Source: Candidatus Levyibacteriota bacterium (GTDB lineage Bacteria > Patescibacteriota > Microgenomatia > Levybacterales > UBA12049). Taken from it: DNA of 64,000 nt. Where the stretch lies: NCBI GenBank assembly GCA_043823085.1, contig JBDRBE010000004.1:133510-197509 (forward strand). The letters run 5' to 3'. Made by a program: the position numbers and the translations under genes. This document shows positions 26,599 through 54,030 of the stretch, piece by piece (positions within the stretch are counted from its first letter, which is position 1; every line of letters begins with the position of its first letter). The notes beneath the pieces are model-generated. The model saw nothing but the letters and a program-made list of their open reading frames with translations, was not told the origin of the DNA and did not search any database.

Positions 26599-27681
26599 AT
26601 GCGGGTTTTATTTTTAACAAGACTTTTTTATCCCCATATCGGCGGAGTTGAAAGACATGTGATGGAGTTGAGTAAGAGGTTGGTTGAAAGAGGAGACGAG
26701 GCATCGGTAATCACAGAGGCAGATTCTCATAATTTTCAATTTTCAATTTTCAATTTTCAATCAAATTCTAATGTAAAAATTTTAAATAAAAAAACACCAG
26801 GCAAGATCGAAATTTATCGGATACCGGTAGGTAAAGATAGCTGGTTTAAGAAGTTTCGGATTTGGCAATGGATGTGGAAACATCGGGAGTTGATTAGTAG
26901 TGCTGACGTTGTCCACTGTCATGATGTATTCTTTTGGTATTTGCCGTTTAGATTCTTGTTTCCGCAAAAGAAAGTTTTTACAACCTTTCATGGTTACGAA
27001 AGCTATCCCATTTCCAAAAAAGCAATAATTGTCCGAAAAATTTCAGAACTTTTATCATTTGGCAATATTTGTATCGGCGATTTTATCAAAAAATGGTACA
27101 AAACAAAAGCGACGTTTGTTTCATATGGCGGCGTCAATGCCAAAAATCAAAAATCAAAAATCAAAAATCAAAGATTAGAAAAAGCAAGAGAGAAGTATTC
27201 CGCTGTTTTCATTGGGCGTTTGGATGAGCAGACAGGAATTTTGACTTATTTAAAGGCGGTTGAATTAATAAAAAAGAAAATTCCTGGTTTTAAATTCACA
27301 GTTATTGGCGAGGGGAGGTTCAAAAATAAAATTCCAAAAGATATTGAGGTTTTAGGATTCCAAGAGAGGGTTGAAGAATATTTCCCAGAATTTAATTTTG
27401 CTTTTGTTTCGCGTTACCTCTCAATTCTTGAGGCAATAGCTGCAAAGCGTCTTGTTTTTGCCCTTTATGATAATCCGGTAAAGCGAGACTATTTAAAAAT
27501 GGCGCCGTTTGCAAAGTTTGTTATTATCTCTAATTCGGAAAAAGAGTTGGCAGAAAAAGTTTTGTTTTTCCTAAAAAATCCGGATAAAGAAAAAGAATTG
27601 GTTGACGATGCTTTTAATTGGGTAAAAAATCAAACATGGGAAAAAGTCCTTCAAACTTACCTAAATCTTTGGAAAAAGTAA
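26599..27681 (+). CDS. Glycosyltransferase family 4 (GT-B)
   Basis: Starts MRVLFLTRLFYPHIGGVERHV, with an E-x7-E-like C-terminal region. It carries two heptamer-array insertions. Confidence 0.75.
   Translation: MRVLFLTRLFYPHIGGVERHVMELSKRLVERGDEASVITEADSHNFQFSIFNFQSNSNVKILNKKTPGKIEIYRIPVGKDSWFKKFRIWQWMWKHRELISSADVVHCHDVFFWYLPFRFLFPQKKVFTTFHGYESYPISKKAIIVRKISELLSFGNICIGDFIKKWYKTKATFVSYGGVNAKNQKSKIKNQRLEKAREKYSAVFIGRLDEQTGILTYLKAVELIKKKIPGFKFTVIGEGRFKNKIPKDIEVLGFQERVEEYFPEFNFAFVSRYLSILEAIAAKRLVFALYDNPVKRDYLKMAPFAKFVIISNSEKELAEKVLFFLKNPDKEKELVDDAFNWVKNQTWEKVLQTYLNLWKK
26734..26761. repeat. (ttttcaa)4 perfect heptamer array inside the GT4 gene
   Basis: Read directly from the sequence. It encodes FQFSIFNFQ. 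Confidence 0.9.
27142..27169. repeat. (aaaaatc)4 perfect heptamer array inside the GT4 gene
   Basis: Read directly from the sequence. It encodes KNQKSKIKNQ. Confidence 0.9.
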
Positions 27682-27716
27682 GCTTCAAATGATATACTTC
27701 AAATATAAAAACAAAC

Positions 27717-28640
27717 ATGAAAGTTTCTTTTGTGGCTACGGTTTTGAATGAGGAGAAGTCAATTGATTATTTCCTTGAATCGCTTTTCAAGCAGTCAGTG
27801 GAGCCGGATGAAATAATCATCGTTGATGCGGAAAGCACCGATGCTACAGCGTCGATAATTTTCAATTTTAAATTTTCAATTTTCAATGAAAAAGTAAAAA
27901 TTATAATAAAAAAAGGGAATAGGGCGGTGGGGAGGAATGAGGCGATAAAAAATGCTACAGGAGAAATTATTGCATGTTCGGACGCCGGATGTGTTTTGGA
28001 TAAAGATTGGTTAAAAAATATCATCGAATCGTTTCAAGACCCAACTATTGATGTAGTTTGCGGATTTTATAAACCAATTACTCACAATATTTTTGAGAGA
28101 TGTTTGGCTACTTACACTTGTGTTATGCCGGACAGAATCGACAGGGAGAATTTCCTTCCATCTTCAAGGTCAGTTGCTTTCAAAAAAAGTGCATGGGAAA
28201 AAGTCAAAGGGTATCCGGAGAATTTAGATACTTGTGAAGATTTAATTTTTGCAAGAAATTTAAAAAAAGCAGGATTAAAATTTAAATTTAATAGAAAGGC
28301 AATAGTTTACTGGCCTCAAAAGAAAAATTTACTTGAAGCATTTAAACAATTTTTTAATTATGCAAAAGGGGACGGTCAGGCAAGACATATACGAATGCAA
28401 ACTCCATTCCTTTTTATCAGATATATTTTAGGTTTTATATTATTATTTTATTCATTAATTTTTAAAATAACATTATTTTATTTTTTAATATTTCTTTTGT
28501 GTTTATATTTTCTTTGGTCAATAAATAAAAGCTTTAAATATATCAAAAACTGGAAGGGATTAATTATTTTACCTGTCTTACAAATGACATCAGATATTGC
28601 AGTAATATCCGGAATGACAGTTGGATTTTTTAAAAAATAA
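27717..28640 (+). CDS. Glycosyltransferase family 2 with a C-terminal TM region
   Basis: Starts [22 protein letters not shown], with a DxD-type GT-A fold. It carries a (ttttcaa)-type insertion. Confidence 0.75.
27848..27875. repeat. Heptamer array ttttcaa-ttttaaa-ttttcaa-ttttcaa inside the GT2 gene
   Basis: Read directly from the sequence. It encodes [10 protein letters not shown]. Confidence 0.9.
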
Positions 28641-29883
28641 TATGGAAAGAAAAATTTTCTTAAATACTTTTTATCAAATTTTTGGAAAAGTTGTTATATC
28701 CTTTTTGGGATTGGTTGGTACATCTTTTTTAACACGTTATCTTGGGCCAATCGGATTCTCCGAATACAGTTTTATTTTCGCCTTTGTTGGATTTGCTTAC
28801 ATTTTTATGGATTTTGGTCTTGGGACTTTACTTACCAGAACCCTTGCCTCTCAAAAAGAAGGGGAGCGATTATTCTCCGAATTTTTTTCGTTAAGAGTAT
28901 TACTCTCGGTTATTGTTTTATTTTTTTCAATGTTAATTGTAATCTTTCTGCCATATACTACAGAAATTAAAATTGGAATTTTTATTGCGTCTTTTTCTAC
29001 GATTTTTATTCTTTTCTCCGGCGTTTTTTGGGGGTTATTTCAGGCGGAAATCAAATTTTCGAAAATGGTAATTCCGCAGATTATAACTTCAGTCTGTTCA
29101 TTCCTTTTGATATCACTTGGCGTAATTTTTCGGGCAAATTTATTTTATTTTTTATTAATTAGCGTAGCGGCGTCACTGGTGGGTTTATTTATTTCATTTT
29201 TATTTAGTAAATATAAAAAGCTCTTTATTTTTAACTTTAAAGTTTTTTGGAGAATTATAATCAAGGCATTGCCTTTCGGAATTGGACTAATAACAAGCGT
29301 TGCATATTTTAAAGTAGACATCCTTATTCTTTCATTTTTTTATAATCCGTCTTTTTATCCGGATGTAGGATTATATTCATTATCTTATAAAGTATTCGAG
29401 GTAGCTGTAATTTTTGGAGGATTATTTTCACAAACACTTTTTCCTCTTTTTTCCAGAATTATAAATTCAAAAGTTTTTTTAATTCACTTCAAAAAATATC
29501 TTTTATATTCATTGTTAATCTCTTTTTCTGCGATTTTGGTTCTTTTGTTCTTTGCGAATTTCTTCATTTCGATTTTGGGGGGAAGTAAATTTTTACAATC
29601 TGCTCAGTCACTGCGAATTTTATCGCTTGCCGCAGGATCTAGCATTTTGGCAGGATTTTTTTCAAGTGTTGCTATAGCCGGCCACAAAGAAGTTTTAATT
29701 TTAAAATTTAGTATTATTGCTCTTATTTTAAATGTTTTTTTAAACTTTGTTTTTATTCCGCAATTTTCTTTTATTGCTGCCAGTTGGACAACTGTTGTGA
29801 CGCAGAGTTTTATCATGACAACAAATATATTCGCTTCCTATTTGGTAATTAAACAACATTTGAGGATGATAAAAGCCCCATGA
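28621..29883 (+). CDS. Polysaccharide biosynthesis flippase (MOP superfamily, Wzx-like)
   Basis: 420 aa, about 12 predicted TM helices, with an N-terminus typical of oligosaccharide flippases. Confidence 0.65.
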
Positions 29884-30731
29884 TTATGAAAAAAAATCCT
29901 TTAGTTTCCGTTGTCACCCCATTTTTTAATGAAGAAAAATATCTTGATTCTTGTCTCTTTTCAATTGCAAATCAGACATATAAAAATGTTCAAATTATCG
30001 CAGTTGACGATGGTTCAAATGATAATTCAAAGCGCAAGGTGCAAAGTGCAAAACAACAATTCAAATTTAAAAATTTAACAATCTTAGAGCAATGCCACCT
30101 TGGTCCGGGAGCGGCTAGAAATTTGGGGGCAACAATGGCAAAAGGTGAGATACTAGTTTTTGCAGATGCGGATATGCATTACGATAAGAATTACATTCAA
30201 AAATTGATAAAACCTATTGTCGAAGGTAAAACAATTGGGACTTTCACTAAGGAAGAATTTATCGCAAATCCAGATAATTTATGGTCTTACTGTTGGAATA
30301 TAAATAGTAATTTGCCAAGAGAAAGACGTTTGCCAACTGATTATCCGGATACGGAGAATGCATTTAGGGCAATTCTAAAAAAAGAATTTGTCAGAGTTGA
30401 AGGTTTTGACGAAAATGAGGGATATACGGACGATTCAAGTTTAGCACGAAAATTAAAAATAAAAGCACTTAGTGCAAAAGGAGCGATATGTTACCACTTT
30501 AACCCCTCAACATTATTTGAAGTTTTTTATTCTGCGCGTTGGATTGGCCGGAGTAAAATTTTTAGACCAAGTTTTGAAAATTTTCTTCGTTTCTCACCGT
30601 TAAATTCTTTAAGAATTAGTTTCAAATACATATTGCAAAAAGCGCCGTTATCAATTATTCCTTTTAAATTGGTTTATGATTTCGGAGTTTTTACTGGAAT
30701 TTTTATATCGAGCGAAAAATATTATAAATAG
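29880..30731 (+). CDS. Glycosyltransferase family 2
   Basis: VSVVTPFFNEEKYL..IIAVDDGSNDNS and a DAD motif. Confidence 0.75.
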   Translation: MIMKKNPLVSVVTPFFNEEKYLDSCLFSIANQTYKNVQIIAVDDGSNDNSKRKVQSAKQQFKFKNLTILEQCHLGPGAARNLGATMAKGEILVFADADMHYDKNYIQKLIKPIVEGKTIGTFTKEEFIANPDNLWSYCWNINSNLPRERRLPTDYPDTENAFRAILKKEFVRVEGFDENEGYTDDSSLARKLKIKALSAKGAICYHFNPSTLFEVFYSARWIGRSKIFRPSFENFLRFSPLNSLRISFKYILQKAPLSIIPFKLVYDFGVFTGIFISSEKYYK

Positions 30732-30732
30732 T

Positions 30733-31404
30733 ATGAATGTTAAATATGATTTTCCCAGATTTGATCCGACAAAGCTTAATAAAAATAATATTAATAGGCA
30801 AGTCGTAGATATTGTTCCATTTGGCTCATTGGTTCTAGAGCTTGGCTGTGCAACGGGATTTGTCGGCGAATTTTTAATAAAAAGCAAAAAATGTCATGTT
30901 TATGGAGTTGAGGAAAGAAAAGACGAGGCAAAAATTGCAGCTAAAAGATTAAACGGGATTTTAGCAATAAATATTGAAGAAAAGGAAGCAATTGATAAAA
31001 TTCAAAAATTGCATCATGGAAAATTTGACGTAATTTTGGCAATGTCTTTAGCAGAGCATCTTAAAGATTTAAAAAGTTTTTTTAGTTTGGTTAAAAAACT
31101 GATGGATAAAAATGGCTGCTTAATTATTACAGTTCCAAATATTGCGCATTGGAGCATAAGATTATCGTTATTGTTTGGAAAATTTAATTACGAAAAATAT
31201 GGAATTTTAGATGAAACTCATTTACATTTTTTTACTGTTAAATCTTTAAAAGATTTAATCGAAAATAATGGATTTGAAATAACAAGTTTAAAAATCGATG
31301 CCGAGGGCGGAGGATACCCTAAGATAAGTCTTTTTCTTTCTCGTTTCTTTCCAAATTTATTCGCTTATCAAATATTAGTGATTGCCAAAATTAAAAATAA
31401 ATGA
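30733..31404 (+). CDS. Class I SAM-dependent methyltransferase
   Basis: VLELGCATGF motif I. The start is placed at the ATG just after the upstream stop; the track ORF begins at 30676, overlapping the previous gene. Confidence 0.65.
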   Translation: MNVKYDFPRFDPTKLNKNNINRQVVDIVPFGSLVLELGCATGFVGEFLIKSKKCHVYGVEERKDEAKIAAKRLNGILAINIEEKEAIDKIQKLHHGKFDVILAMSLAEHLKDLKSFFSLVKKLMDKNGCLIITVPNIAHWSIRLSLLFGKFNYEKYGILDETHLHFFTVKSLKDLIENNGFEITSLKIDAEGGGYPKISLFLSRFFPNLFAYQILVIAKIKNK

Positions 31405-32240
31405 AGCTTTCTATAATTATCGTTGGTTACAGAGCTAAAAAAAGACTGTTCGATTGCATTAAATCGATTGAAAACTCGAAACCCAAAAATCAATATGAAA
31501 TAATTGTTATTGATCATGATGAGACGAGCGCTATTAAAAACGAAACCGAAAAGAAGTTTCCGTTTGTTCAGTATTTCAAATCAAAAGAAAATAAAGGCTA
31601 TGGCGCTGGAAATAATTTAGGGGCAAAACGTGCTAAAGGTCAGTTCCTTTTCTTTTTAAATCCCGACACAATTGTCTTTCCAGACACAATAGATATTTTA
31701 CTAAATACGATTGAAAAAAATAAAAATATTGGTATTGTTGCGCCGTTTCTTTTAGATAAAAGTAATAATCAATACGATCTTCAGGGAGCAAGAGAACTGA
31801 CTCCGTTTAGAGCGTTTTTTGTTCTTTCATTTATTAACAAATATTTCCCCAAGAATCCGGTTTCCAGAGACTACTGGATTTTAGATTGGGACAAAATTAG
31901 TTTAAAAGAAGTTGATACAGTGCCTGGGACGGCTTTCATTATTAGGCGTGAAGTATTTGAAAAGATTAAGGGTTTTGATGAGAATTTTTTCCTTTACTTT
32001 GAGGAGTTTGATTTGTGTAGAAGAATCAGGAAATTGGGTTTCAAAATTTTTATGGACCCAAAAAGCAAAGTGAAGCATTTTTGGGGCGAAAGCACAAAGG
32101 AGCGAAATGACATAAAGCGAATTTTTGCTGAGTCCCGTTTTTACTATTTTAGAAAGAGTTATGGATTTTTTTGGGCGCTGCTGGTTCAATTTGTCACGAG
32201 TCTGAACAAGTACAAAATGTTTTTATCTTTTTTTAAATAA
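31401..32240 (+). CDS. Glycosyltransferase family 2
   Basis: LSIIIVGYRA... GT-A N-terminus and DxD. Confidence 0.7.
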   Translation: MKLSIIIVGYRAKKRLFDCIKSIENSKPKNQYEIIVIDHDETSAIKNETEKKFPFVQYFKSKENKGYGAGNNLGAKRAKGQFLFFLNPDTIVFPDTIDILLNTIEKNKNIGIVAPFLLDKSNNQYDLQGARELTPFRAFFVLSFINKYFPKNPVSRDYWILDWDKISLKEVDTVPGTAFIIRREVFEKIKGFDENFFLYFEEFDLCRRIRKLGFKIFMDPKSKVKHFWGESTKERNDIKRIFAESRFYYFRKSYGFFWALLVQFVTSLNKYKMFLSFFK

Positions 32241-32261
32241 TATTATATAATTAAAATTAAA

Positions 32262-33002
32262 ATGATATCAGCTGTTATTTTAACTAAAAACGAGGGAAAA
32301 AATATTATTGATTGCATTAAAAATTTGTCTTTTGCAAACGAGATAATAATCATCGACGATAATTCGAATGATAAAACAGCAGAGCTTGTCGAAAGTTTAA
32401 AGAGAAAAGAAATAAAGATTTTCAAAAGAGATCTCCAAAAAGATTTTGGCACGCAAAGAAATTTTGGACTTTCAAAAGCAACTGGTGAGTGGGTAATTTT
32501 TATAGATGCCGACGAAAGAGTGTCAGATGCTCTAGCTTGGGAAGTCTCAAATTTAAATTTGAATAATTTAAATGGGTTTTTTGTAAGACGTATTGACGTC
32601 ATGTGGGGAAAACGGTTGCAACATGGAGAGATAGGAAATATTAATCTTTTGCGCATGGCAAAAAAAGATGCAGGCGCGTGGGAAGGGAAGGTTCATGAGA
32701 AATGGAATGTAAAAGGAAGAATTGGAAGCTTTAAAAATCCGCTAATGCACTATCCCCATCAATCAGTATCGGAATTCTTAAAAGAAATTAATTTTTACAC
32801 GGATATTAGAGCAAAAGAGTTGCATGATAAAAAAGTTAAAGCGGGAATATTATCAATTATTCTTTATCCAATGATGAAATTTATTGTAAATTATTTCTTT
32901 AAATTAGGTTTTTTTGACGGTTTAGAGGGTTTGGTTTTTGCAATGATGATGTCTTTTCATTCTTTTTTGGTTAGAGGAAAACTATGGCAATTATCTTTTT
33001 AA
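32262..33002 (+). CDS. Glycosyltransferase family 2
   Basis: ISAVILTKNEGKNI..IIIIDDNSNDKT, with a DAD motif. Confidence 0.7.
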   Translation: MISAVILTKNEGKNIIDCIKNLSFANEIIIIDDNSNDKTAELVESLKRKEIKIFKRDLQKDFGTQRNFGLSKATGEWVIFIDADERVSDALAWEVSNLNLNNLNGFFVRRIDVMWGKRLQHGEIGNINLLRMAKKDAGAWEGKVHEKWNVKGRIGSFKNPLMHYPHQSVSEFLKEINFYTDIRAKELHDKKVKAGILSIILYPMMKFIVNYFFKLGFFDGLEGLVFAMMMSFHSFLVRGKLWQLSF

Positions 33003-34150
33003 TTCTTCTTTTTATTTTTCCTTTAGGAGAAATAACCCGACTCCAATTCTCAAATGGAATTGCATTTACATTAAATGATATCTTTATCGCATTAACAGTA
33101 ACAGTTTGGTTTATATGGAGATTAATCAAAAGAAAGGAGTTAAAAATACCTTTATTAAAGCCAATTATGATTTTTGCCGGGTTCGGTTTATTCTCACTAA
33201 TTATAAATATATTAAACCTAAATTCATTCCAGTTTTTGGTTTCATTCCTTTATCTTTTTAGGTGGTTAATCTACGCGGGAATTTATTTTGTTGTTTTTGA
33301 TTTTGACCCCAAGTTTAAAAGGAAAATTCCAGTTTTTATGATTATTGTTGGGATGATCGTAGTTTTAATTGGGTTTGTCCAATATTTTTTATATCCATCT
33401 TTGCGAAATCTTTATTATCTGGGATGGGATGAACATTTATACCGAATGTTCTCAAGCTTCCTTGATCCAAATTTTTTAGGAGTGTTTTTTGTATTATTAT
33501 TTTTGTTAGTTTTTGAATTTTTCTTTAGAACAAAAGAAAGACAAAAAAAAATATTAATGGCAGTTTTATCTATATTAATTCTTGTTTCTATTTATCTGAC
33601 TTTTTCCAGAAGCGCTTATGCAGCGTTGGTTATTGGATTAACAGTTTTTCTTGTTTTGGAAAATAAGAGGAAATGGAGTTTGGCAATGTTTGGAATTATA
33701 ATTTTGGTTTTAATATTGTCTTTGCGAAATTCTAATATCGAAAATCAAAATTTGTTTAGAACAGCATCAAGTATCGCAAGAATTGATTCTTCGTTAAACG
33801 CAATAAAAATAATTGAAAAAAATCCGATTTTTGGAGTCGGTTTTAATGCTTACAGATACGCGCAGATTAGATATGGATTTCGAGGTGATCAATCATTATT
33901 TTCAGACCACGCCGGTTCGGGAACAGATAATAGTTTTTTGTTTATCCTTGCAACTACAGGTATTTTGGGGCTTAGTGGATATTTATACTTAACATTTTCA
34001 ATTTTTAAAAATTCATTGAAACTAAAATCGACATTGCTAGTTTCCTCATTAACAAGTTTAATAATTGCCAGTTTTTTTATTAACGCCCTTTTTTATCCAT
34101 TTTTAATGCAGTGGGTGTGGATTCTAGTAGGACTTACTGAGAATAAGTGA
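32984..34150 (+). CDS. O-antigen ligase/polymerase-like (Wzy/WaaL family) membrane protein
   Basis: Polytopic protein with an FSRSAYAALVIG-type periplasmic loop motif characteristic of O-antigen ligase/polymerase. Confidence 0.6.
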   Translation: MAIIFLILLFIFPLGEITRLQFSNGIAFTLNDIFIALTVTVWFIWRLIKRKELKIPLLKPIMIFAGFGLFSLIINILNLNSFQFLVSFLYLFRWLIYAGIYFVVFDFDPKFKRKIPVFMIIVGMIVVLIGFVQYFLYPSLRNLYYLGWDEHLYRMFSSFLDPNFLGVFFVLLFLLVFEFFFRTKERQKKILMAVLSILILVSIYLTFSRSAYAALVIGLTVFLVLENKRKWSLAMFGIIILVLILSLRNSNIENQNLFRTASSIARIDSSLNAIKIIEKNPIFGVGFNAYRYAQIRYGFRGDQSLFSDHAGSGTDNSFLFILATTGILGLSGYLYLTFSIFKNSLKLKSTLLVSSLTSLIIASFFINALFYPFLMQWVWILVGLTENK

Positions 34151-34865
34151 CTTTACGTTTCATTTCTGTTTGGTTTCCTGCCGGGTCTGTTGAGTTAATT
34201 ACAATTTCATTATCGCCATTTTGAAGCTTTAAATTGTAAGAATATCTTCCGTTTCCATCGACAATAGCCCAGAATCCGTTAACAGTAACTTTATTTCCCG
34301 CCTCAGTACTGCCGCTTACAATTATAGGATTGTCATCTTTTGAAAAAGATTGTCCTTCGTTTGGTGTGTCAACAGATAAATTTGGCGCATCATTTTTTAA
34401 AGTAATTGTATAGGTTTGGGAAAAATCGCTTTCTTTCTTTTCTTGATTATCGTTTACGACAGCTTTAACTTTAATTGAGTTCTCTCCTTTTGAGAGTATA
34501 ATTTTATCAAACATAAATGAACCGTCGTCTTTGGTGCTTGTTTTGTCAACAATCTCCTCGTTTATATAAAGATCAATTGTTTCATCTTTCGATGCGTTTC
34601 CGGAAATATTTAGTTTGGCGCTGTTCGTAGCATCAAGAATTGGATTAAGAAGAGGAACAGCGATATATGAACTGGAATTTTGAGTTGATGGTTCGGTTTC
34701 TCCCTTTGAACCAGTAGCAAACATGCTTAAATTTACCAAAAGAGGAATGCCAAACTTTACTAATAAAAATATGATGATAATTATGCCAAGAATACTGAAC
34801 CAAAAAGTTTTTGCGCTCTGTTTTTCAAGTCTTCTTGCCAGTCGTGATCTATTCGTATTTTTCAT
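34134..34865 (-). CDS. Membrane-anchored surface protein with two Ig-like (Big-type) repeats
   Basis: N-terminal TM helix, Ser/Thr/Asn/Asp-rich, two ~80-aa beta-rich repeats. The start is moved to Met16 to avoid overlap with tRNA-Thr. Confidence 0.5.
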   Translation of the reverse strand: MKNTNRSRLARRLEKQSAKTFWFSILGIIIIIFLLVKFGIPLLVNLSMFATGSKGETEPSTQNSSSYIAVPLLNPILDATNSAKLNISGNASKDETIDLYINEEIVDKTSTKDDGSFMFDKIILSKGENSIKVKAVVNDNQEKKESDFSQTYTITLKNDAPNLSVDTPNEGQSFSKDDNPIIVSGSTEAGNKVTVNGFWAIVDGNGRYSYNLKLQNGDNEIVINSTDPAGNQTEMKRKVTYSQ

Positions 34866-34885
34866 AAAAATTAATATTTCCCCTG

Positions 34886-34957
34886 AGCCGATGGCGGGAA
34901 TCGAACCCACGACCTAGTGTTTACGAAACACTTGCTCTACCACTGAGCCACATCGGC
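34886..34957 (-). tRNA. tRNA-Thr (anticodon CGT)
   Basis: 72-nt manual fold on the minus strand: acceptor gccgatg/catcggc, anticodon loop ttCGTaa, T-loop ttcgatt. Confidence 0.8.
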
Positions 34958-34990
34958 GCGGATAATATCATTGTATTAAATTTGAGGTTT

Positions 34991-35650
34991 TTATTCAAAT
35001 CCCATGCGTTTGCCCCAAGTCGGCGGGTCTTTTATAAATTCTAAAAGAATATTTTGATCTTCATTTGCAATATATTTATTTTTTTTTGCAACAGATACCA
35101 CATCGGCAAAGCTTGTGAGCGACGTCAGCCTTACTTTATTTTGTTTAAAATTATCCTCTGATTTTTTCATCTTATAAGTGATAATAGAAAATATATTTGA
35201 GGATTTTGCGCCAGCGTTTCTAATTGCTCTAACGGTTTGGACAGAACTTTCTCCGGTTGATATCAAATCTTCAATAACCGCCACTTTTTGATTTTTCTTA
35301 AGGATTCCTTCAATTTGGTTGCCTTTGCCATGGTCTTTGGCTTTTCCACGGACATAAACCATGGGTTTATTTAGTTTATGTGAAATCCATGCCGCGTGTG
35401 GAATGCCTGCCGTAGCTGTTCCGGCAATAACGTCATAATTATCAGTTGATTGAATTAAATTCAAAAGTAAACCGATGATAATTTTTCTTTCTTTTGGATG
35501 TCCCATCAAAAGCCTACAATCTGTGTAAACCGGACCAAGAATCCCCGAAGTGTACCGATAAGGTTTTTTTGGATTTAGAGTTATTCCGTTAATCTCAAGC
35601 AAAATTTTTGCGACTTTTTCAGCGATTTTTTTTCTATCTATTTTTTTCAT
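34991..35650 (-). CDS. pyrE: Orotate phosphoribosyltransferase
   Basis: PRPP-binding motif VAVIEDLISTG. 219 aa. Confidence 0.85.
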   Translation of the reverse strand: MKKIDRKKIAEKVAKILLEINGITLNPKKPYRYTSGILGPVYTDCRLLMGHPKERKIIIGLLLNLIQSTDNYDVIAGTATAGIPHAAWISHKLNKPMVYVRGKAKDHGKGNQIEGILKKNQKVAVIEDLISTGESSVQTVRAIRNAGAKSSNIFSIITYKMKKSEDNFKQNKVRLTSLTSFADVVSVAKKNKYIANEDQNILLEFIKDPPTWGKRMGFE

Positions 35651-36462
35651 AGGCGGTATTCGTTTATTATCCCTCTCATTTTGCTTGCATTTATTCGCGC
35701 ATTTTTGGCAAAATCGTCATTACTCGATGTATAAAGTATAGATCTTGAGTTATTGCAAATAAGATTACTGCCACTTTTGTCAATGCCTGCTGTTATTGCT
35801 TTTTGGGTTTCAGCCCCTTGTGCGCCAATTCCTGCAGTCAAAATAGGATTATTTGGAAAAAGTTTTCTGACATTTGCTAATTCTTTAGGATAAGTAGCTC
35901 CCACAAATACTGCAATATTTTTATATGGCCATTTACTTATTGTTTTTGCCAATCTTAAATAAAAAGGTTCATTCTTTACCTTTAAATCTTGAAACATTTT
36001 TGCATCGGGATTGGAAGTTTTTAGCAACAAAATAGTTGTTTTGTCTTTGTATTCAAGAAAAGGAAGAATTGAATCCAAGCCCAAATATGGATAAACAGTT
36101 GTCGCGTCGGCATTCCAATATTCAAACATCGCTTTAGCATACATTTTGGCGGTATTTCCAATGTCAGCTCTTTTTGCATCTAATATAACAGGTATGTCTG
36201 TATACTTTGCACGAATATAATCGATAGTTTTTTTTAATTGCATTAACCCGTTGATTCCGTAAGCCTCGTAAAAAGCGATATTTGGTTTGTAAGTGCAGAC
36301 GAGATCAAAAGTCGCGTTAATAATTTCTTTATTAAATTCAAAAATTGGTTCTTTCTTTTTTAAAGTATGTTTTGGAAATTTTGCAAGTTCCGGATCGAGA
36401 CCAACGCAAAGGAGTGAATTGTTTTTTTTAATAATCGCAGATAATTTTTGCGCAAAATTCAT
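35647..36462 (-). CDS. pyrF: Orotidine 5'-phosphate decarboxylase (type 2)
   Basis: LCVGLDP motif. 271 aa. Confidence 0.8.
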   Translation of the reverse strand: MNFAQKLSAIIKKNNSLLCVGLDPELAKFPKHTLKKKEPIFEFNKEIINATFDLVCTYKPNIAFYEAYGINGLMQLKKTIDYIRAKYTDIPVILDAKRADIGNTAKMYAKAMFEYWNADATTVYPYLGLDSILPFLEYKDKTTILLLKTSNPDAKMFQDLKVKNEPFYLRLAKTISKWPYKNIAVFVGATYPKELANVRKLFPNNPILTAGIGAQGAETQKAITAGIDKSGSNLICNNSRSILYTSSNDDFAKNARINASKMRGIINEYRL

Positions 36463-37031: not shown

Positions 37032-37041
37032 AGTCCTGTTC

Positions 37042-38315: not shown

Positions 38316-38320
38316 AACTT

Positions 38321-40996
<2,676 letters not shown>

Positions 40997-40999
40997 AAA

Positions 41000-42520: not shown

Positions 42521-42869
42521 TCGTTTCTCCTATATATTTCGCTAAATCATCAAGCGTATTTTTTAAATCCATTTCATAGAGTATATCATTGTCCTGGATT
42601 CTCATGCCCAAGATTAAGTTAGGATCAAGATTATAAATAATTTTTTTAGAGCCAAACATATTTTTTAAATTTTTTATATTTTCGCCTTTTAAGGGTCTAG
42701 GCGAAGACACTATTACACTTCTTTGTAGTTCTAAATTTTTCAAAGCTTTTATATAATGTTTTAATTCTTTTCTTGTTAATCTTTCGGCTATCCTTTCTAC
42801 TTTTTTTTGATCGAGATTGTTTTTGGTATAACTTTCCAAGATTAATTTTTTTATGTGTTTTTTTGTCAT
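42513..42869 (-). CDS. atpH: ATP synthase delta (OSCP) subunit, unusually short (118 aa)
   Basis: Position between the b and alpha subunits, with a C-terminal OSCP-like segment. The N-terminal domain appears to be missing. Confidence 0.55.
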   Translation of the reverse strand: MTKKHIKKLILESYTKNNLDQKKVERIAERLTRKELKHYIKALKNLELQRSVIVSSPRPLKGENIKNLKNMFGSKKIIYNLDPNLILGMRIQDNDILYEMDLKNTLDDLAKYIGETND

Positions 42870-42870
42870 T

Positions 42871-43377
42871 TTAATTTGGTTTTTCTTTAAATCGTTTTAT
42901 GGCTTTATTAATAATTTCTTCCTGATCCTTTTCGCTAAAAAAATCCTTCATTGTTTTTTGCAAAAATTGAATAGCAAGATTTGAAACATGGACAGTAAGT
43001 TTTTCCTCGGTAAGTTTCGCTTCTCTTGAGATTTGATTTTTTGCTTCTTCCACAAGCATCTCTGTCTGTTTCTTTGTTCGTTTTTCTGCTTTATTAGAAA
43101 GTTCGAGCGCCTGGTTTTTTGCCTCTTGAAGCATTTGGTTTGCCTGACCTTGAGCTTTTTTTAAAATATTTTTTTCATCTTCAAGAGTTTTTTCCAAAAG
43201 AAGCCTTGCTTTTTCTGAATTTTCCAATCCTGCTTTTATTTTTACTTCTCTTTCTTTTAGCATCCCAAGAATTGGTTTATAAAGAAGCTTTCGTAAAAGG
43301 AACAATATAATCAGAAAATTTATTATTTGAGCTGCCAACAACATCGGATCAAGCCCAAAATTATTTATAATCTCCAT
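42871..43377 (-). CDS. atpF: Fo ATP synthase subunit b
   Basis: N-terminal TM helix followed by a long charged coiled coil. Confidence 0.8.
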   Translation of the reverse strand: MEIINNFGLDPMLLAAQIINFLIILFLLRKLLYKPILGMLKEREVKIKAGLENSEKARLLLEKTLEDEKNILKKAQGQANQMLQEAKNQALELSNKAEKRTKKQTEMLVEEAKNQISREAKLTEEKLTVHVSNLAIQFLQKTMKDFFSEKDQEEIINKAIKRFKEKPN

Positions 43378-43392
43378 AATTTAAACACAAAT

Positions 43393-44338
<946 letters not shown>

Positions 44339-44384
44339 ATTTGTTTTCTTTTATTTAATATTTTAGAGATAACATCAGATTAAG

Positions 44385-47300
44385 TCAAGAAGAAAAATAG
44401 TTTAAAGGGTAAATTTTTTCGATAATAATAATCGATTTTTCATTTTTGGTATCTATTTTCCCATCAATAACAATAATTGTGTCTTCCCGTAAAAGATTTT
44501 TATACTGGTCAAAAATTTTAGGGAAAACAATGCATTCGAGACTAATTCCCTTTTCGTCGCTTATTACCAAAAAGGCCATTTCTTTATTGGATTTTTTAGT
44601 AAATATTCTTCTAAGCGATTCGATAAGGCCTCCAATTCTAACTTTACTTCCTTCTGTTTCTTCGGGAATTAACTCAAAACTATGGGAAACAGTAGATTTT
44701 AACAAAAGGAGATTTTCCATTTGCGGATGAGAAGTTAAATAAATGCCTAAAAATTCTTTTTCAAAAGCCAGCTTTTCGTTTGCACTGAATTCTTCAACGT
44801 CTGTGGTAAAACGGTCAGAAGAAACGGGATCGTCTGTATCATCAAAAAGCATTCCCTGACCTTGGGCTTTTTGTTTTTTTATTTTATGTAAGTTTTCTAA
44901 AGTTTGAGGAAGACTGATTAAAAGATTGGCTCGTTTTCCAAAATCATCCATGGCTCCTGCTTTAATAAGGCTTTCCATAGTTTTTTTATTTACCTTACTA
45001 AGGTCAACTCTTTGGCAAAAATCATCGAAATTTTTGAATAGTTCATTCTTTCTTGAAGCAAGGATTGTTTCAATTGCCGCTGTCCCTACATTTTTAATGG
45101 CAGATAATCCAAATCTTATTTTAGTTTTATCTTCAATAGAAAATTCGCTTTCTGATTTATTAATGTCAGGGGGTAAAACTAAAATTTTAATTTTTTTGCA
45201 TTCTGCTACGGCCAGAGCAATTTTTTCGTTCTTAACAGGTCCGGATGAACTACGAGACTCAGCAGTTAGAAGAGCTGTCATAAATTCCACTGGAAAGTGG
45301 GATTTCATGTATCCGGTTTGGTAAGCAATTAAAGCGTAAGATGCGCTATGAGATTTGTTGAAACCATAGCCGACAAATTTTTCAATTAATGCAAAAACGT
45401 CTTCGGCTGTTTTCTTTGAATACCCTTTAGCAAGACACCCTTTCATGAATTTTTCTTTTTCTTTTTTCATTAACTCCGGTTTTTTCTTGCCGATAGCTTT
45501 TCTAAAAGTATCCGCTTCAGCCAGAGTGTAACCTGCCATGACATTTGCAATTTGCATACATTGTTCTTGGTAAACAGCTATACCATATGTTTCTTCTAAA
45601 ATTGGCTTTAGATCGGGATGCGGATAATTTATTTTAAAAGAGTTGTTTTTTGATGCAATAAATTCGTCGATCCAGGCCATAGGTCCCGGTCGAAAAAGCG
45701 CGACCATTGCTGAAAGATCGGAAATCTTTGAAGGCTTAAGGTCTTTGGCAAGTCTTCTCATTCCGGCTGATTCAAGCTGGAAAACTCCTGTTGTCTCACC
45801 GCTTTTTATTAAGTCATAGATACTTTTGTCATCAAGAGGAATTTTTTCAAGATCAATATTGATATTCTGATTTTTTTTAACAAAAATAATAGCGTTTTCC
45901 AAAATTGTTAAGTTCCTAAGTCCTAAAAAATCAATTTTTAAAAGTCCGATAGCGTTTGAGGAAACATTTAAATCTAGATCGTACATATCGTATTGCGTAA
46001 TTATTCTTTCGCCTCTTGCTTCTCTTTGAAGTGGAGTATATTCAGTCAATGATTTATCTGCGATAACAACACCTGCGGCATGAGTTGAGGCATGTCTTGT
46101 AACACCCTCCAGTTTTCTTGCTAAATCTAAAAGTTTTTTTGTTTCTTGTTCGCTATGATAGGCAACTGATAATTCTGTACTTTGTTCTAGAGCTTTTTCG
46201 ATAGTCATTGTAAATCCTTGAGCCCCAAGCGGAATCATTTTCGAAATTCTATCAGGTCCGGTATAGGGCATTCCCAAAGCTCTTCCCGTGTCTCTAATAG
46301 AACCTCTTGCCTCCATTGTTCCAAAAGTTATAATTTGAGCTACTTTATCGCTTCCGTATTTACCAGTGACATATTTAATCACCTCGTCTCTTCGGTCATC
46401 TGCAAAATCTAAATCAAAGTCAGGGGGAGTTGGCCTTTCCGGATTTAAAAATCTTTCAAACGGAAGTTTATACAAAAGGGGATCAAGCTGTGTGATTTTT
46501 AGAATGTAAGAGATAATGCTTCCAGCAACCGACCCTCTCCCCGGTCCTGCACCGATTCCTTTAACTCTTGCCCATTGTTTTAGATCGTGGACGATTAAAA
46601 AATAAGTTGAATACCCTTTTTGTATAATGATTGATAATTCATACTCAATTCTTTTTTTTACTTCATCGTTTGGTTTTGGGTATCTTTCTTTTAAATTTTT
46701 ATCGACAAGTTCGCGAAGGTAAATTTCCGTCGTTTGGCCTTTGGGAACTTTAAATTGGGGAATTATCCATTTCCCTGTCTCGATTTCAAGATTGCACATG
46801 TCGGCAATTTTGACCGTATTTTCAATAGCTTGCGGATATTGAATAAACTGTCCTGCCATTTCTTCTGGACTTTTTAGGTAAAAATCCGGAGATTCGATCA
46901 TCGATAAGGGTCTATCTTTATCCAAGAGAGTTTTTTGAGTCTGGATGCAAAGTAAAATTTCTTGAGCTTGCGCATCCTCTTTTGTCGGATAATGCGTGTC
47001 GTTTGTGGCGACAATTGGCAAGCCCATTCTTTTTGAAAGTTCTATAAGATGTCCGTTTAATGTTTCTTGCACATCGATTTTTGGATGTATTTGCAGTTCT
47101 AAAAAGAAATTTCCTTGCCCATAAATATCTACTAGCGCTTTTGTTTTATCCTCGGCTTCTTTTTGTTTTCCCAAAAGCAACGGTTCGGCGATAAACCCGT
47201 TGACGCAGGCGGATAAGCAAATTAATCCTTTACTGTATTTTGAAAGCGTTTGTAAATCAAGCCTAGGTTTATAATAAAAGCCTTCCAAATTGGAAATTGT

Positions 47301-47618
47301 TACAAGCTTAAGAAGATTTTTATAGCCGACATTGTCTTTTGCAAGTAAAACCAGGTGATTTCTATCAGCATCAATATTTGCTTCTTTATCATGTAAATTG
47401 CGTCTTGCAATGTAAACTTCGCAGCCGATAATTGGTTTTATGCCTGCCTCTTGGCAAGAGTGATAAAATTTTAACGCTCCGTACAAAGCTCCATGGTCGG
47501 TAATCGCCAACGCTTTCATCCCTAATTCTTTTGCACGGCGTACCATGTTGGGGATTTTTGAAAGCCCATCCAAAAGTGAAAATTCAGTATGGTTGTGAAG
47601 ATGAACGAAGTCTGCCAT
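44385..47618 (-). CDS. dnaE: DNA polymerase III alpha subunit
   Basis: N-terminal PHP domain (HLHNHTEFSLLDG), polymerase core and OB fold. 1077 aa. Confidence 0.95.
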   Translation of the reverse strand: MADFVHLHNHTEFSLLDGLSKIPNMVRRAKELGMKALAITDHGALYGALKFYHSCQEAGIKPIIGCEVYIARRNLHDKEANIDADRNHLVLLAKDNVGYKNLLKLVTISNLEGFYYKPRLDLQTLSKYSKGLICLSACVNGFIAEPLLLGKQKEAEDKTKALVDIYGQGNFFLELQIHPKIDVQETLNGHLIELSKRMGLPIVATNDTHYPTKEDAQAQEILLCIQTQKTLLDKDRPLSMIESPDFYLKSPEEMAGQFIQYPQAIENTVKIADMCNLEIETGKWIIPQFKVPKGQTTEIYLRELVDKNLKERYPKPNDEVKKRIEYELSIIIQKGYSTYFLIVHDLKQWARVKGIGAGPGRGSVAGSIISYILKITQLDPLLYKLPFERFLNPERPTPPDFDLDFADDRRDEVIKYVTGKYGSDKVAQIITFGTMEARGSIRDTGRALGMPYTGPDRISKMIPLGAQGFTMTIEKALEQSTELSVAYHSEQETKKLLDLARKLEGVTRHASTHAAGVVIADKSLTEYTPLQREARGERIITQYDMYDLDLNVSSNAIGLLKIDFLGLRNLTILENAIIFVKKNQNINIDLEKIPLDDKSIYDLIKSGETTGVFQLESAGMRRLAKDLKPSKISDLSAMVALFRPGPMAWIDEFIASKNNSFKINYPHPDLKPILEETYGIAVYQEQCMQIANVMAGYTLAEADTFRKAIGKKKPELMKKEKEKFMKGCLAKGYSKKTAEDVFALIEKFVGYGFNKSHSASYALIAYQTGYMKSHFPVEFMTALLTAESRSSSGPVKNEKIALAVAECKKIKILVLPPDINKSESEFSIEDKTKIRFGLSAIKNVGTAAIETILASRKNELFKNFDDFCQRVDLSKVNKKTMESLIKAGAMDDFGKRANLLISLPQTLENLHKIKKQKAQGQGMLFDDTDDPVSSDRFTTDVEEFSANEKLAFEKEFLGIYLTSHPQMENLLLLKSTVSHSFELIPEETEGSKVRIGGLIESLRRIFTKKSNKEMAFLVISDEKGISLECIVFPKIFDQYKNLLREDTIIVIDGKIDTKNEKSIIIIEKIYPLNYFSS

Positions 47619-47622
47619 AAAA

Positions 47623-48396
47623 CTATTTCATTATGTTTTCAAATATTATCTTTTCTCCAACCCTTTTTGCTTGTACAAAATGATTTCTGGTGTGTTTTGC
47701 TTTGTATAATGCTTGATCGGCAAGTTTAATTACGTCTTCAAGTTTGTCGCCTGGGTGGTAGTCTGCAACTCCCCCGCTGATTCTAACTACTTTAAGTTTA
47801 TTTTTTGGATCAGCGTCGGGACTGTAAGAACGGTTTTCTAGAATGTTTCTCGTAACCATTGATATTTTAGAAGCATGAGCTGAAACAACGTGGAATAAGC
47901 CTTGGAGGTAAGATTCTTTGTCGTCCATATTTATTATTTGAAGAAATTCATCTCCTCCCCACCGCGCAATCGGTTCAGATGTTCTATGATCTAGTAGTTT
48001 AGCGCTTCTTAATATGTCGTCTCCAACTGGGTGTCCATATCCGTCGTTTACGAATTTAAATTTATCGTAATCCATTATTAAGATTTTAAATGCAAGTCCA
48101 ATCCTGTCAGCTTGCGATGTTCTCATTTTTAGTTGCTCTTCCATCCATCTTCTATTAGGCAGGCCTGTTACGCTATCGACAACTGAAAGTTTTTTTGTTG
48201 ATTTTTCTCTTTCTCTCAATCTCTCAATTCTCATATCTTTTGCGGTTTGACTTCTAGCAATTCTATTTACTGCAACAGGATCACTATTCGGAAGAATTTT
48301 ATTTAGTTCTTTAGTAATTCCTTGAACCCTAGCTTGATTTTGGGGTATTTTACTTTCTTTTTGTTCTGGTTGTTCTGGACTTTGTATGTCTGACAT
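47623..48396 (-). CDS. GGDEF-domain protein (putative diguanylate cyclase) without a recognisable sensor domain
   Basis: GGDEF signature (ARWGGDEF) with upstream RxxD-like context. It has an ~80-aa low-complexity N-terminus. Confidence 0.7.
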   Translation of the reverse strand: MSDIQSPEQPEQKESKIPQNQARVQGITKELNKILPNSDPVAVNRIARSQTAKDMRIERLREREKSTKKLSVVDSVTGLPNRRWMEEQLKMRTSQADRIGLAFKILIMDYDKFKFVNDGYGHPVGDDILRSAKLLDHRTSEPIARWGGDEFLQIINMDDKESYLQGLFHVVSAHASKISMVTRNILENRSYSPDADPKNKLKVVRISGGVADYHPGDKLEDVIKLADQALYKAKHTRNHFVQAKRVGEKIIFENIMK

Positions 48397-48398
48397 AG

Positions 48399-49766
48399 TT
48401 AATTTAACTTTTTGATTATAGTGTTTCTGATTGTTTCCGTGTTGACTTTTTTGTCTTTTAATTTGCGGTTAACAGAGCCTATAAGAAAGCCCAAGACTTG
48501 AGTTTTTCCATTTTTGTAATCATTTATCGCTTTTTTGTTCTCCAATAAAACTTCTTTTACGATTTTTTCTAATTCGTCGTCGGATATTGTAGTTGTTTGC
48601 GTTGATTTTAATATTTGTTGAATAAGCTCTGCCGGTAAAACTTGTTTAATGTTGATTCTTTTATTTATAATCCAGTTGGCAATTGTTTTTGCGTCTGTCT
48701 GATTCACTTTTACGCATTCTTCAAAATATTCTGCAGTATTTTTTTCTCTGGTTAAAATTTCCGCATCATAATTAATCAAAGAGTACTCTTTTTTAAACCG
48801 CTCGAATTTTTGATCGGGAAGTTCAACCATTTGATTCGCCAGCTGGCGGATTTGATTTTCCGTCCAACGGAATGGAGGAATGTCGGGCTCGGGGAAATAT
48901 CTGTAATCATGCGCTTGTTCTTTGCTTCGCTGGGTTACTGTTGTCTGCTTTTTTTCATCCCAGCCTCTTGTTTCTTGCTCCGGAATTTTTCCAGATTCAA
49001 GAATTTTTTCCTGTCTTTGAATTTCATAATTAATCGCTTTCTCAACGAACTTAAATGAATTGATATTTTTAACCTCAACTTTATAGGGAGGTAATTTATT
49101 GTTTAGATTTGAATTTTGATTTGTAGTTTTGATTTTTGAGGTTTGATTTTTGAGGTTTAATGATATGTTGGGTTCCAGTCTCATTTCTCCTTTCTCCATA
49201 TTCGCATTCGAAACGCCTAGATAGCGGACAATTTGCTGAAGTTTTTGCAAAAATTCTTTAACATCAGTTGAATTCTCAAAATCCGGTTCCGTCACAATTT
49301 CAACTAGGGGAACGGCGGATCTATTAAAGTCGACAAGAGAAAATCCTTCGTCACTATGAATCAATTTAGCTGTATCTTCTTCCATGTGAACACGCCTGAT
49401 CCTTATATTTTTGATTTTTAATTTTTGATTTTTGATTTTGAGCAATCCGTTGATTGCGAACGGTTTATCATATTGGCTTATTTGGTATCCTTTTGCCAAA
49501 TCGGGATAAAAGTAATTTTTTCTGTCAAATTTTGAAGTTAATGGAATTTTACAGTTTAATGCCAGTCCAATCATAATGCACCAATCAATTGCGGTTTTAT
49601 TTGGTACGGGAAGTGCCCCAGGAAGTCCAAGACAAACAGGACAGGTATGAGTGTTTGGATCTTTGCCAAAATACTCGGCAGAACATGAACAAAACATCTT
49701 CGATTTTGTCTTTAGCTCCACATGAACTTCTAGTCCTATAATAGGTTGATATTTTACGTCTTTCAT
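48399..49766 (-). CDS. gatB: Asp/Glu-tRNA amidotransferase subunit B
   Basis: IGLEVHVEL...CSCS N-terminus. It contains two low-complexity insertions encoded by heptamer arrays. Confidence 0.9.
   Translation of the reverse strand: MKDVKYQPIIGLEVHVELKTKSKMFCSCSAEYFGKDPNTHTCPVCLGLPGALPVPNKTAIDWCIMIGLALNCKIPLTSKFDRKNYFYPDLAKGYQISQYDKPFAINGLLKIKNQKLKIKNIRIRRVHMEEDTAKLIHSDEGFSLVDFNRSAVPLVEIVTEPDFENSTDVKEFLQKLQQIVRYLGVSNANMEKGEMRLEPNISLNLKNQTSKIKTTNQNSNLNNKLPPYKVEVKNINSFKFVEKAINYEIQRQEKILESGKIPEQETRGWDEKKQTTVTQRSKEQAHDYRYFPEPDIPPFRWTENQIRQLANQMVELPDQKFERFKKEYSLINYDAEILTREKNTAEYFEECVKVNQTDAKTIANWIINKRINIKQVLPAELIQQILKSTQTTTISDDELEKIVKEVLLENKKAINDYKNGKTQVLGFLIGSVNRKLKDKKVNTETIRNTIIKKLN
49131..49158. 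repeat. Tandem 14-mer (gatttttgaggttt)x2 plus flanking degenerate copies inside gatB (sense strand: aaacctcaaaaatc)
   Basis: Read directly from the sequence. It encodes ...KPQKSNLKNQTSKIK... Confidence 0.85.
49407..49441. repeat. (atttttg)n array of 4-5 units inside gatB (sense strand: caaaaat)
   Basis: Read directly from the sequence. It encodes LKIKNQKLKIKNIRI. Confidence 0.9.
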
Positions 49767-51244: not shown

Positions 51245-51343
51245 AATTTTCAATTTTTAATTTTTAATCAATTTTCAATGACAAAATTTTTGAACATTAA
51301 AACATTTTGATTTCACTTTAAATTTCAAATTTTAAATTTAAAA
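51245..51343. repeat. gatC-gatA intergenic spacer built almost entirely of AATTTTY/AAATTTY heptamer-like units
   Basis: aattttc-aattttt-aattttt-aatcaattttcaatg ... aaatttc-aaatttt-aaattta-aaatt. Confidence 0.7.
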
Positions 51344-54028: not shown

Positions 54029-54030
54029 GT

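Follow-up and report, generated by a model that had tools for sequence, protein, structure and literature searches.

Heptanucleotide tandem arrays of the AAAAATC family in glycosyltransferase and gatB genes of a Candidatus Levyibacteriota bacterium belong to a broader period-7 repeat class

As summarised in PMC4679880 and PMC4692102, Mrazek (2007) found the heptanucleotide to be the most over-represented class of long simple-sequence repeats in many prokaryotes. According to the same summaries, polymerase slippage was proposed as the origin of these repeats, and 7 nt was suggested to be the stretch of DNA that contacts the polymerase. For example, the G-rich GGGNATC and short tandemly repeated repetitive (STRR) sequences of Xanthomonas and Nostoc form G-quadruplexes, which have been blamed for their preference for 4 units (Rehm et al. 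2015, PMC4692102). The TAACTGA repeats of marine Beggiatoaceae and cyanobacteria translate in reverse orientation to LSVISYQ, for which an antiparallel beta structure was predicted (MacGregor 2015, PMC4679880), and the 7-bp repeats of Haemophilus influenzae hmw1A/hmw2A gain or lose whole units by slipped-strand mispairing (PMC8262952). In this study, we analysed a 64,000-nt stretch of a Candidatus Levyibacteriota bacterium (GCA_043823085.1, contig JBDRBE010000004.1, positions 133,510 to 197,509; hereafter the window), in which an initial annotation had noticed AAAAATC-type heptamer arrays in a GT4-family glycosyltransferase gene and in gatB. We believe, with a probability of about 0.7, that these arrays are heptanucleotide simple-sequence repeats (SSRs) that arise by slippage and then pass through three filters, namely reading frame, stop codons and the tolerance of the protein. 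They belong to a class that is strongly over-produced in this Levybacteria-type genome of the Candidate Phyla Radiation (CPR) and in its relatives.

A period-7 repeat class in the window

Thirteen period-7 arrays with at least 3.5 copies and at most 2 mismatches were found in the window, whereas a third-order Markov model predicts 0.06, and no excess over this model appeared at periods 4, 5 and 8-15. Exact lag-7 runs of at least 10 nt numbered 11, compared with 0-3 at each lag other than the multiples of 7, and four of the five perfect tandem repeats with at least 3 copies had period 7. At least seven units were present, namely AATTTTC (5 loci), AAAAATC, AGTTACA, AATTCCA, GCGTATG, TTATGAA and AAAATAT. 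The host genes were MurG, IleRS (two arrays), GT4 (two), GT2, GatB (two) and MurT (two), and the copy number of the coding arrays was 4.3-4.7. Seven of 12 arrays lay fully within genes and five at gene boundaries or between genes, so that the density was about 10 times higher outside genes (5 arrays in ~3.2 kb of non-coding DNA versus 7 in 60.8 kb of coding DNA). Because perfect arrays were read in three different frames and were also present between genes, we believe that the arrays originate at the level of DNA. Two marks of the heptanucleotide SSR class were found in the window, namely head-to-tail 7-nt units in at least 3 copies and an excess specific to period 7.

All three AAAAATC-family arrays reported by the initial annotation were recovered by Tandem Repeats Finder (TRF), by an exact-repeat scan and by translation (Table 1). 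The array in the GT4 gene was in frame and encoded AKNQKSKIKNQR, which includes KNQKSKIKNQ. The array at gatB site 1 read (ATTTTTG)4.7 on the forward strand and AAAAATC-type in the sense of gatB, where it encoded LLKIKNQKLKIKNIRI. At gatB site 2, a 14-mer was repeated 3.2 times at 49115-49158 with 90% identity, each 14-mer consisting of an AAACCTC and an AAAAATC heptamer variant, and a decayed period-7 tail extended this array down to 49108. With up to 2 mismatches allowed, AAAAATCAAAAATC had 30 matches, compared with 13.0 ± 3.6 in shuffled sequence, and none of 100 shuffles reached 30. The in-frame translations also bore out the polar, K/N/Q/S/I-rich composition of the encoded peptides. The only factual slip concerned the third array, for which KPQKSNLKNQTSKIK had been given; this peptide mixes reading frames, and the in-frame peptide is LNLKNQTSKIKTTNQNSNLNN. 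The AAAAATC arrays are real 7-base tandem repeats, but they had been presented as a second system paired with TTTTCAA, and this pairing was replaced by a wider picture: AAAAATC is one of at least seven units of a genome-wide period-7 class, one family among many and no special system.

Table 1. Period-7 arrays and their host genes in the window (strand "." where neither strand applies).
Feature	Position	Strand	Context
(CCAAAAA)2.6, short relative of the AAAAATC family	6182..6199	+	Sense, HAD-like hydrolase gene, peptide KNQKP
(TTATGAA)3.1	8038..8059	.	Gene boundary
(AAAATAT)3.6	14677..14701	.	Spans a stop/start gene junction
(AATTTTC)4.7	15195..15227	+	MurG, junction of N- and C-terminal domains
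(AGTTACA)4.3	21296..21325	+	IleRS; +2 aa versus PDB 8c8v
(AATTTTC/AATTTTT)4.6, degenerate	21775..21806	+	IleRS, "site 830" beta-hairpin hot spot
GT4-family glycosyltransferase gene	26599..27681	+	Two arrays; Pfam Glyco_transf_4, Glycos_transf_1
(AATTTTC)4.4, perfect	26731..26761	+	GT4 gene, disordered loop
(CAAAAAT)4.6, perfect	27141..27172	+	GT4 gene; contains (AAAAATC)4 at 27142-27169; TRF and exact-repeat scan, 100% identity
(AATTTTC)4.4	27857..27887	+	GT2 glycosyltransferase gene 27717..28640
gatB (Asp/Glu-tRNA amidotransferase subunit B)	48399..49766	-	PDB 3al0_B, 3h0l_B, 2df4_B, E-values 1e-126 to 1e-96
gatB site 2, degenerate heptamer array	49108..49158	-	Encodes LNLKNQTSKIKTTNQNSNLNN
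gatB site 1, (AAAAATC/AAAAATT)4.7	49407..49440	-	92% identity; peptide LKIKNQKLKIKNI, beta-hairpin tip
gatA	49815..51242		Follows gatB
AATTTTC/AATTTTT, intergenic	51245..51279	+	Just upstream of the gatA start, antisense to gatA
(AAATTTA/AAATTTC)3.7, intergenic	51320..51345	.
(GCGTATG)3.1, perfect, intergenic	54008..54029	.	Between murT and downstream gatD-like gene
(AAAATTA/AAAAATT)3.9, degenerate	54163..54189	-	murT, sense, encodes KIKNFKLKI
(AATTCCA)4.4	54203..54233	-	murT; different unit, also of the period-7 class

Orientation of the arrays and the stop-codon filter

Read circularly through the three phases, AAAAATC gives AAA AAT CAA AAA TCA AAA ATC, which is stop-free, whereas its complement GATTTTT carries TGA. 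Likewise, AATTTTC is open and GAAAATT closed, AGTTACA is open and TGTAACT closed, and the opposite strand was closed in all three frames at every array. The initial annotation had proposed that AAAAATC arrays lie only in the coding sense. The count agreed with this, since all intragenic AAAAATC-family copies in the window were sense, and the AAAAATC arrays across all loci collected comprised 4 in sense, 0 in antisense and 1 outside any open reading frame (ORF). As a signal of orientation the rule did not hold, because a heptamer array passes all three codon phases every 21 nt and GATTTTT yields TGA, so that three or more antisense copies are impossible inside any ORF; the orientation is forced by stop codons. 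The C in AAAAATC and in TTTTCAA-type units can be explained in the same terms, because in an A/T-rich unit the transition from T to A must be TCA, or else TAA or TGA arises. MacGregor (2015) made the same stop-codon argument for the TAACTGA repeats, one orientation of which is limited in ORFs (PMC4679880).

Where a unit did carry a stop, the single offending copy had been mutated. For example, the IleRS array of the related locus L084 reads AGAATTA AGAATTA AGAATTT AGAATTA and is changed where TAA would be in frame, and in the murT array at 54163 one unit is altered at the corresponding point. The array at 51245 is antisense to gatA, and there is therefore no intrinsic link between the arrays and the direction of transcription. 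Gene strand in the window is forward up to ~34.1 kb and then reverse to ~58.8 kb (convergent), and the cumulative GC skew stops rising at the switch; positions ~34000-36000 are possibly the replication terminus region. Because gene strand and GC skew switch together, sense and the presumed leading strand are inseparable in the window.

We regard the K/N/Q-rich peptide as a side effect of a unit that is A-rich and stop-free, and not as a designed module. What appeared to be a strand-aware coding repeat is reduced to a simple rule, namely a stop-free unit in its stop-free orientation that changes in 3-unit steps, and this rule can be reused for any non-triplet repeat inside genes.

Host proteins and relatives

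An exact look-up of the GatB of the window gave no match. After the source metagenome-assembled genome (MAG) itself (100%, on a 431-kb contig), protein searches with GT4, IleRS and GatB returned no relative above 74% identity. The nearest other genomes were Levybacteria/Microgenomates MAGs with 60-74% protein identity and conserved synteny, and these relatives carried 30-40 bp period-7 arrays, often in the same genes and with other units. A test independent of DNA counted runs in which residue i equals residue i+7, with 120 homologues per protein set. Lag-7 runs numbered 20 in IleRS (runs of at least 4; 0-4 at other lags), 10 in GT4 (at least 4; 0-2 at other lags) and 64 in GatB (at least 3; 6-18 at other lags), and the hot-spot arrays were confirmed as perfect DNA arrays in L081-L086. 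In Microgenomates-like loci, 36 period-7 arrays were present in 473 kb, compared with 0.4 expected, a set that includes four loci picked because they carried arrays. Other low-GC CPR loci had 14 in 746 kb, and loci above 50% GC had 1 in 285 kb. All but one of the ~35 intragenic arrays seen were in frame. Copy number changed by whole units in relatives, by 3 units between close GatB proteins and by 1 unit in the MurG of L084. Period-7 specificity, the filters, hot spots, 3-unit polymorphism and a 1-unit frameshift were observed in this study.

GatB contained five hot spots. The initial annotation had held that GatB bears two extra segments, and the alignment to solved GatB structures supported this for one of the two sites. 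Site 2 (aa 206-225) corresponded to a 13-14 aa gap in the Thermotoga, Aquifex and S. aureus proteins (3al0, 3h0l, 2df4). In contrast, site 1 (aa 108-123) fell on conserved residues, with no gap against Aquifex GatB and a 1-residue gap against Thermotoga GatB, and it ran residue for residue along an existing hairpin, the outcome that the initial annotation had named as refuting its proposal. Between anchors, the site-1 hairpin was 17 aa in the window against a modal 13 in 120 orthologues (+4), and the site-2 loop was 25 aa in the window, compared with 11, 17 or 24 aa in most of the 120 orthologues. In the AlphaFold model of GatB (predicted local distance difference test, pLDDT, 84), site 1 was placed at the tip of a hairpin with strands 104-112 and 118-130 (pLDDT 87-95), and site 2 was a loop predicted to be disordered (pLDDT below 50, aa 210-222). 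From these alignments, site 2 is probably an insertion, and site 1 a recoded, slightly lengthened hairpin tip.

In other species, the AAAAATC array (NQKSKIKNQK) occurred at GatB sites 2, 3 and 5, and the peptide KLKIKNEKLKI recurred among orthologues at site 1. At site 3, with identical flanks, the segment was 13 aa without an array and 20 aa with one, or 10 versus 17. GatB proteins more than 90% identical differed by exactly DQRSKIK, that is, 3 x GATCAAA. In the helix at aa 303-313, 16 aa separated the anchors in 120 of 120 orthologues, yet perfect arrays were present there. Several orthologues had NTTNTTN-type peptides at site 2, such as LRSNTTNTTNRSNTTNDLNLPN, which point to short-period repeats besides heptamers in this loop.

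The AAAAATC array of GT4 lies within the interdomain linker. The loop in the window is the modal 14 aa plus 7, and removal of 3 units gives the 14-aa loop that is modal in homologues. In the AlphaFold2 model of GT4, aa 181-194 form a low-confidence helix or linker, and aa 44-67, the loop of the AATTTTC array, have pLDDT below 50. The MurG array had zero net length gain against PDB MurG. In L084, MurG (3177-4282) consisted of two overlapping ORFs for the N- and C-terminal domains in different frames. The split sat at a (TCAGAGT)4.7 array (3683-3716) that is one unit short of in-frame, at the same domain junction as the MurG array of the window. Possible readings are a gene that is truly split or in its phase-off state, a variant within the population, and recoding.

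The IleRS array at 21775 was length-neutral against PDB. Site 830 of IleRS is a beta-hairpin with Asn at the turn, and arrays were found there in at least 25 of 120 orthologues, among them KFQISNF (AAATTTC), KYQISNI (AAATATC), EFRIQNS (GAATTCA), FSIFNFQ (AATTTTC) and ELRIKNL. Array-bearing orthologues had the same length as array-free ones, and perfect 5-copy DNA arrays were present at this site in L081-L084. The IleRS of a Gottesmanbacteria-labelled MAG (L082:10001-12874) contained four period-7 arrays, namely two arrays of AAGGAAA type, AAATCTC x5 and AAATATC x5, and a single protein can evidently tolerate several such arrays.

The two arrays of MurT jointly added ~15 aa against the closest relative, L002. 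Apart from these arrays, a GC-rich in-frame insertion GGPARHVSRALRGVAGR was found at MurT aa ~338-354 (54398-54446, reverse strand), absent from 10 of 10 MurT orthologues examined. Its DNA contains a 10-mer tandem (GCGTTGCGAG GCGTTGCGGG) as well as a short inverted repeat, GCCCGC...GCGGGC, and from this sequence a small palindromic or repetitive extragenic palindromic (REP)-like element seems to lie within the gene, in a genome of 35% GC. Another insertion of 6 aa (SLPAHW) lies near aa 83. Upstream of murT, 55466-55518 is a degenerate A-rich heptamer/23-mer repeat, followed by TTGCGGTATAAT (region 55440-55520). The listed TTG start of the murT ORF, 55458, falls inside the -10-like motif of TTGCGGTATAAT; alignment of orthologues suggests an ATG ~18 nt downstream of this TTG as the true start, so that the transcript may have little or no leader.

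In unrelated proteins and genomes, the same permissive loops also carried in-frame insertions of a second class: in GatB of L009 and L022, at GatB sites 1, 2 and 5 of P02xx-P03xx, and in GT4 of P0035, P0057, P0079 and P0098. Examples of the peptides are HPELVSGS...MPKQVRHD, SLRG..DEAIS..ARNDK and VIPAKAGIQ...LDSRLRGNDN, and by analogy with Rickettsia palindromic elements (RPEs) they look like translated palindromic dispersed repeats.

A metagenome scan for (AAAAATC)4 gave at least 80 loci on contigs of 27-70% GC, and most arrays among the matches listed had 4.3-5.1 copies. On GC-rich contigs an ORF of at least 150 codons is no trustworthy evidence of coding, and only Pfam-verified low-GC matches were used. 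On low-GC contigs, sense arrays lay within genes for class I aminoacyl-tRNA synthetases (two), TsaD, GMP synthase, HsdS, a radical-SAM protein, ThrRS, an ATP-dependent DNA ligase, PGK and a CCA-adding enzyme. In addition, one contig (L136, Ga0308414_1000716, GC 0.66) carried 28 period-7 arrays in 13.9 kb, in many cases one directly after another, with the units CTGAACC, GATTTTC, GATTTTT, CTGAGTG, TTCGGGC and others, each in ~4.5-5.5 copies, which is an STRR-like landscape with AT-rich units within GC-rich DNA.

Origin of the arrays and comparison with known systems

We infer slippage as the generating step. In this reading, short A-rich proto-repeats already in the local sequence would be the starting point, and as the DNA is replicated or repaired, its strands would slip or misalign in a 7-nt register and so duplicate, delete and homogenise heptamers. 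Under a frame filter, an array would then survive only if its net change were 3 units (21 nt, 7 aa) or its turnover left the length unaltered. The coding arrays cluster at ~4.3-4.7 copies because only 3-unit or length-neutral changes keep the frame. A stop filter would retain only stop-free units in the stop-free orientation, all three phases being read, and a protein-tolerance filter would leave arrays in place at the tips of hairpins, in disordered loops and linkers, and on a surface helix.

Several points weigh against this reading. Whole-unit change was seen in the arrays of relatives, and for the three focal arrays themselves the databases searched contained no close relative of the genome. 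Perfect arrays also occupy length-invariant sites (GatB aa 303-313 and IleRS site 830), and simple expansion is therefore insufficient there without cycles of +3 and -3 units or in-place conversion. An array in an essential gene could grow from ~1.6 to 4.6 copies only by gaining several units in one burst or by way of frameshifted intermediates, which would be lethal. AAAAATC ranks 8th of 1608 ORF-compatible units but accounts for only 0.3% of the expected mass, too little for a unit that recurs so often, and composition plus the stop filter was therefore insufficient as the full cause of its recurrence. AT-rich AAAAATC arrays were also present in contigs of 55-70% GC, for which birth from local sequence is not readily an explanation. 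Finally, the preference for 7 nt is left without explanation by slippage and filters. For period 7, the 3-unit jumps, the length-invariant sites and the recurrence of AAAAATC, a mobile or enzymatic origin and in-place rewriting are kept as minority options.

In the first of these, pre-formed heptamer cassettes of ~31-35 bp would be inserted or spread horizontally by a mobile or enzymatic process, as has been suspected for the STRR repeats of cyanobacteria and the TAACTGA repeats of Beggiatoa; we consider this unlikely. The occurrence of AAAAATC at GatB sites 1, 2, 3 and 5 in different species and on at least 80 metagenome contigs of 27-70% GC speaks for such cassettes, as do the narrow array size of ~4.4-5.1 copies regardless of unit and the 28 arrays of the GC-rich L136, AT-rich units included; horizontal transmission has been proposed for the TAACTGA repeats (PMC4679880). 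However, defined ends, shared flanks, inverted or terminal repeats and target duplications of the kind expected of an RPE-like element were looked for around same-family arrays, and none was found. The units at orthologous hot spots grade into one another by 1-3-nt variants and resemble the sequence of array-free orthologues, strain differences are exact 3-unit steps within an array, and with 3 units taken out the loop returns, in frame, to its ancestral length. Where arrays at invariant sites leave the length unchanged, they are not insertions.

The other minority option is a lineage-enhanced process in Microgenomates and other CPR that writes ~32-nt heptamer tracts and makes them homogeneous again in place, with the length unchanged, and we regard it as a doubtful one. 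The length-neutral arrays of IleRS, MurG and GatB site 1 were first read as such overwriting. This reading was demoted because MurT, GT4 and GatB sites 2 and 3 gain 7 aa cleanly, and +3/-3 cycles could mimic overwriting. The process would be a property of the replisome or of repair, or else a dedicated activity. If it exists, it would continually recode hairpin tips, linkers and helices of essential enzymes, with an occasional split or frameshift as in the MurG of L084, and it would be a DNA-level driver of protein evolution beyond ordinary microsatellite drift.

It is very improbable that the K/N/Q-rich and FSIFNF segments were selected as protein features, for example as interaction or solubility modules of CPR bacteria, with the DNA periodicity secondary. 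Many orthologues do keep arrays at matching structural positions, a direct repeat of 7 aa with a central Asn suits a beta-hairpin with an Asn turn, and peptides such as KLKIKNEKLKI recur. On the other hand, perfect nucleotide periodicity is unnecessary for a peptide in which each unit is read in a different frame, and non-coding DNA carries the same class at ~10-fold density. The units, and hence the peptides, vary freely among orthologues, many of which have no array, and the segment can be present or absent between close strains. GatB site 2 and GT4 site A are moreover predicted to be disordered.

Contingency loci, in which unit slippage would switch genes on and off reversibly (phase variation), are very improbable indeed. 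The 7-nt unit is no multiple of 3 and the arrays lie inside ORFs, one orthologous MurG is frameshifted at its array, promoter-proximal arrays stand at 51245 and ~55500 upstream of gatA and murT, and 7-bp repeats drive hmw phase variation in H. influenzae (PMC8262952). Against this, the hosts IleRS, GatB, MurG and MurT are single-copy essential housekeeping genes, the arrays are mid-gene and away from the 5' end, their copy numbers are low (~4.6), and all but one of the ~35 intragenic arrays kept the frame. Surface, virulence or restriction-modification hosts and 5' arrays were not found, and the single out-of-frame case was the only sign of an off allele. An origin by chance from AT-rich low-complexity sequence, or by assembly error, is practically negligible: the genome is 31-37% GC with an A-rich coding strand, but Markov and dinucleotide shuffles gave ~0 such arrays, the excess is confined to period 7, genes are kept in frame, and arrays recur in independent assemblies from different studies.

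The wider pattern is one of 7-bp microsatellites, prone to frameshift, at ~50-75 per Mb in essential enzymes of ultra-small CPR bacteria and concentrated at orthologous structural hot spots. Such arrays form a natural data set on why period 7 is favoured among prokaryotic long SSRs, a question dating from 2007, and they may account for part of the lineage-specific loop insertions in CPR proteins. In MAG annotation, they can cause genes to be called as split or frameshifted and can give rise to spurious "insertions" of low complexity.

A literature search for heptanucleotide repeats in Patescibacteria/CPR found nothing specific. The RPEs of Ogata et al. (2000) are reportedly mobile palindromic elements of ~100-150 bp that lie in frame in protein genes. 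Like RPEs, the arrays of the window are DNA without function that essential proteins tolerate in frame where they are exposed at the surface; unlike RPEs, the arrays are tandem heptamers and not palindromic mobile elements, and a palindromic class seems to be present in relatives. The hmw1A/hmw2A repeats share the 7-bp unit, while they form long arrays in adhesin promoters with a demonstrated regulatory role (PMC8262952), in contrast to the short mid-gene arrays in housekeeping enzymes described here. Similarly, the TAACTGA repeats are heptamer direct repeats, but with one dominant unit, mostly just upstream of start codons, where translational regulation was proposed (MacGregor 2015, PMC4679880), whereas the window has many units within genes. 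The GGGNATC/STRR repeats are dispersed 7-nt arrays that prefer ~4 units (Rehm et al. 2015, PMC4692102). The arrays of the window are A/T-rich, so that a G-quadruplex is impossible, yet they show the same copy preference of ~4.5. The few dominant, mainly intergenic units typical of STRR and TAACTGA repeats were not seen; at least seven units occur in 64 kb, and 7 of 12 arrays are within genes.

The closest match is the prokaryotic class of long SSRs, which, as far as the summaries describe it, likewise consists of tandem 7-nt units with an enrichment of period 7 and many units per genome, is denser outside genes than inside, and has a proposed origin by slippage. In those accounts it belongs mainly to large, often GC-rich genomes (Burkholderia, Xanthomonas, cyanobacteria) and is intergenic, whereas the window comes from a tiny CPR genome of 35% GC. 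The heptanucleotide excess of prokaryotes is already known; its in-frame density in essential CPR genes, together with the hot spots and the turnover of units, seems to be undescribed. Compared with the published class, the window differs in that many of its arrays stand in frame in essential genes, at orthologous hot spots where the units turn over.

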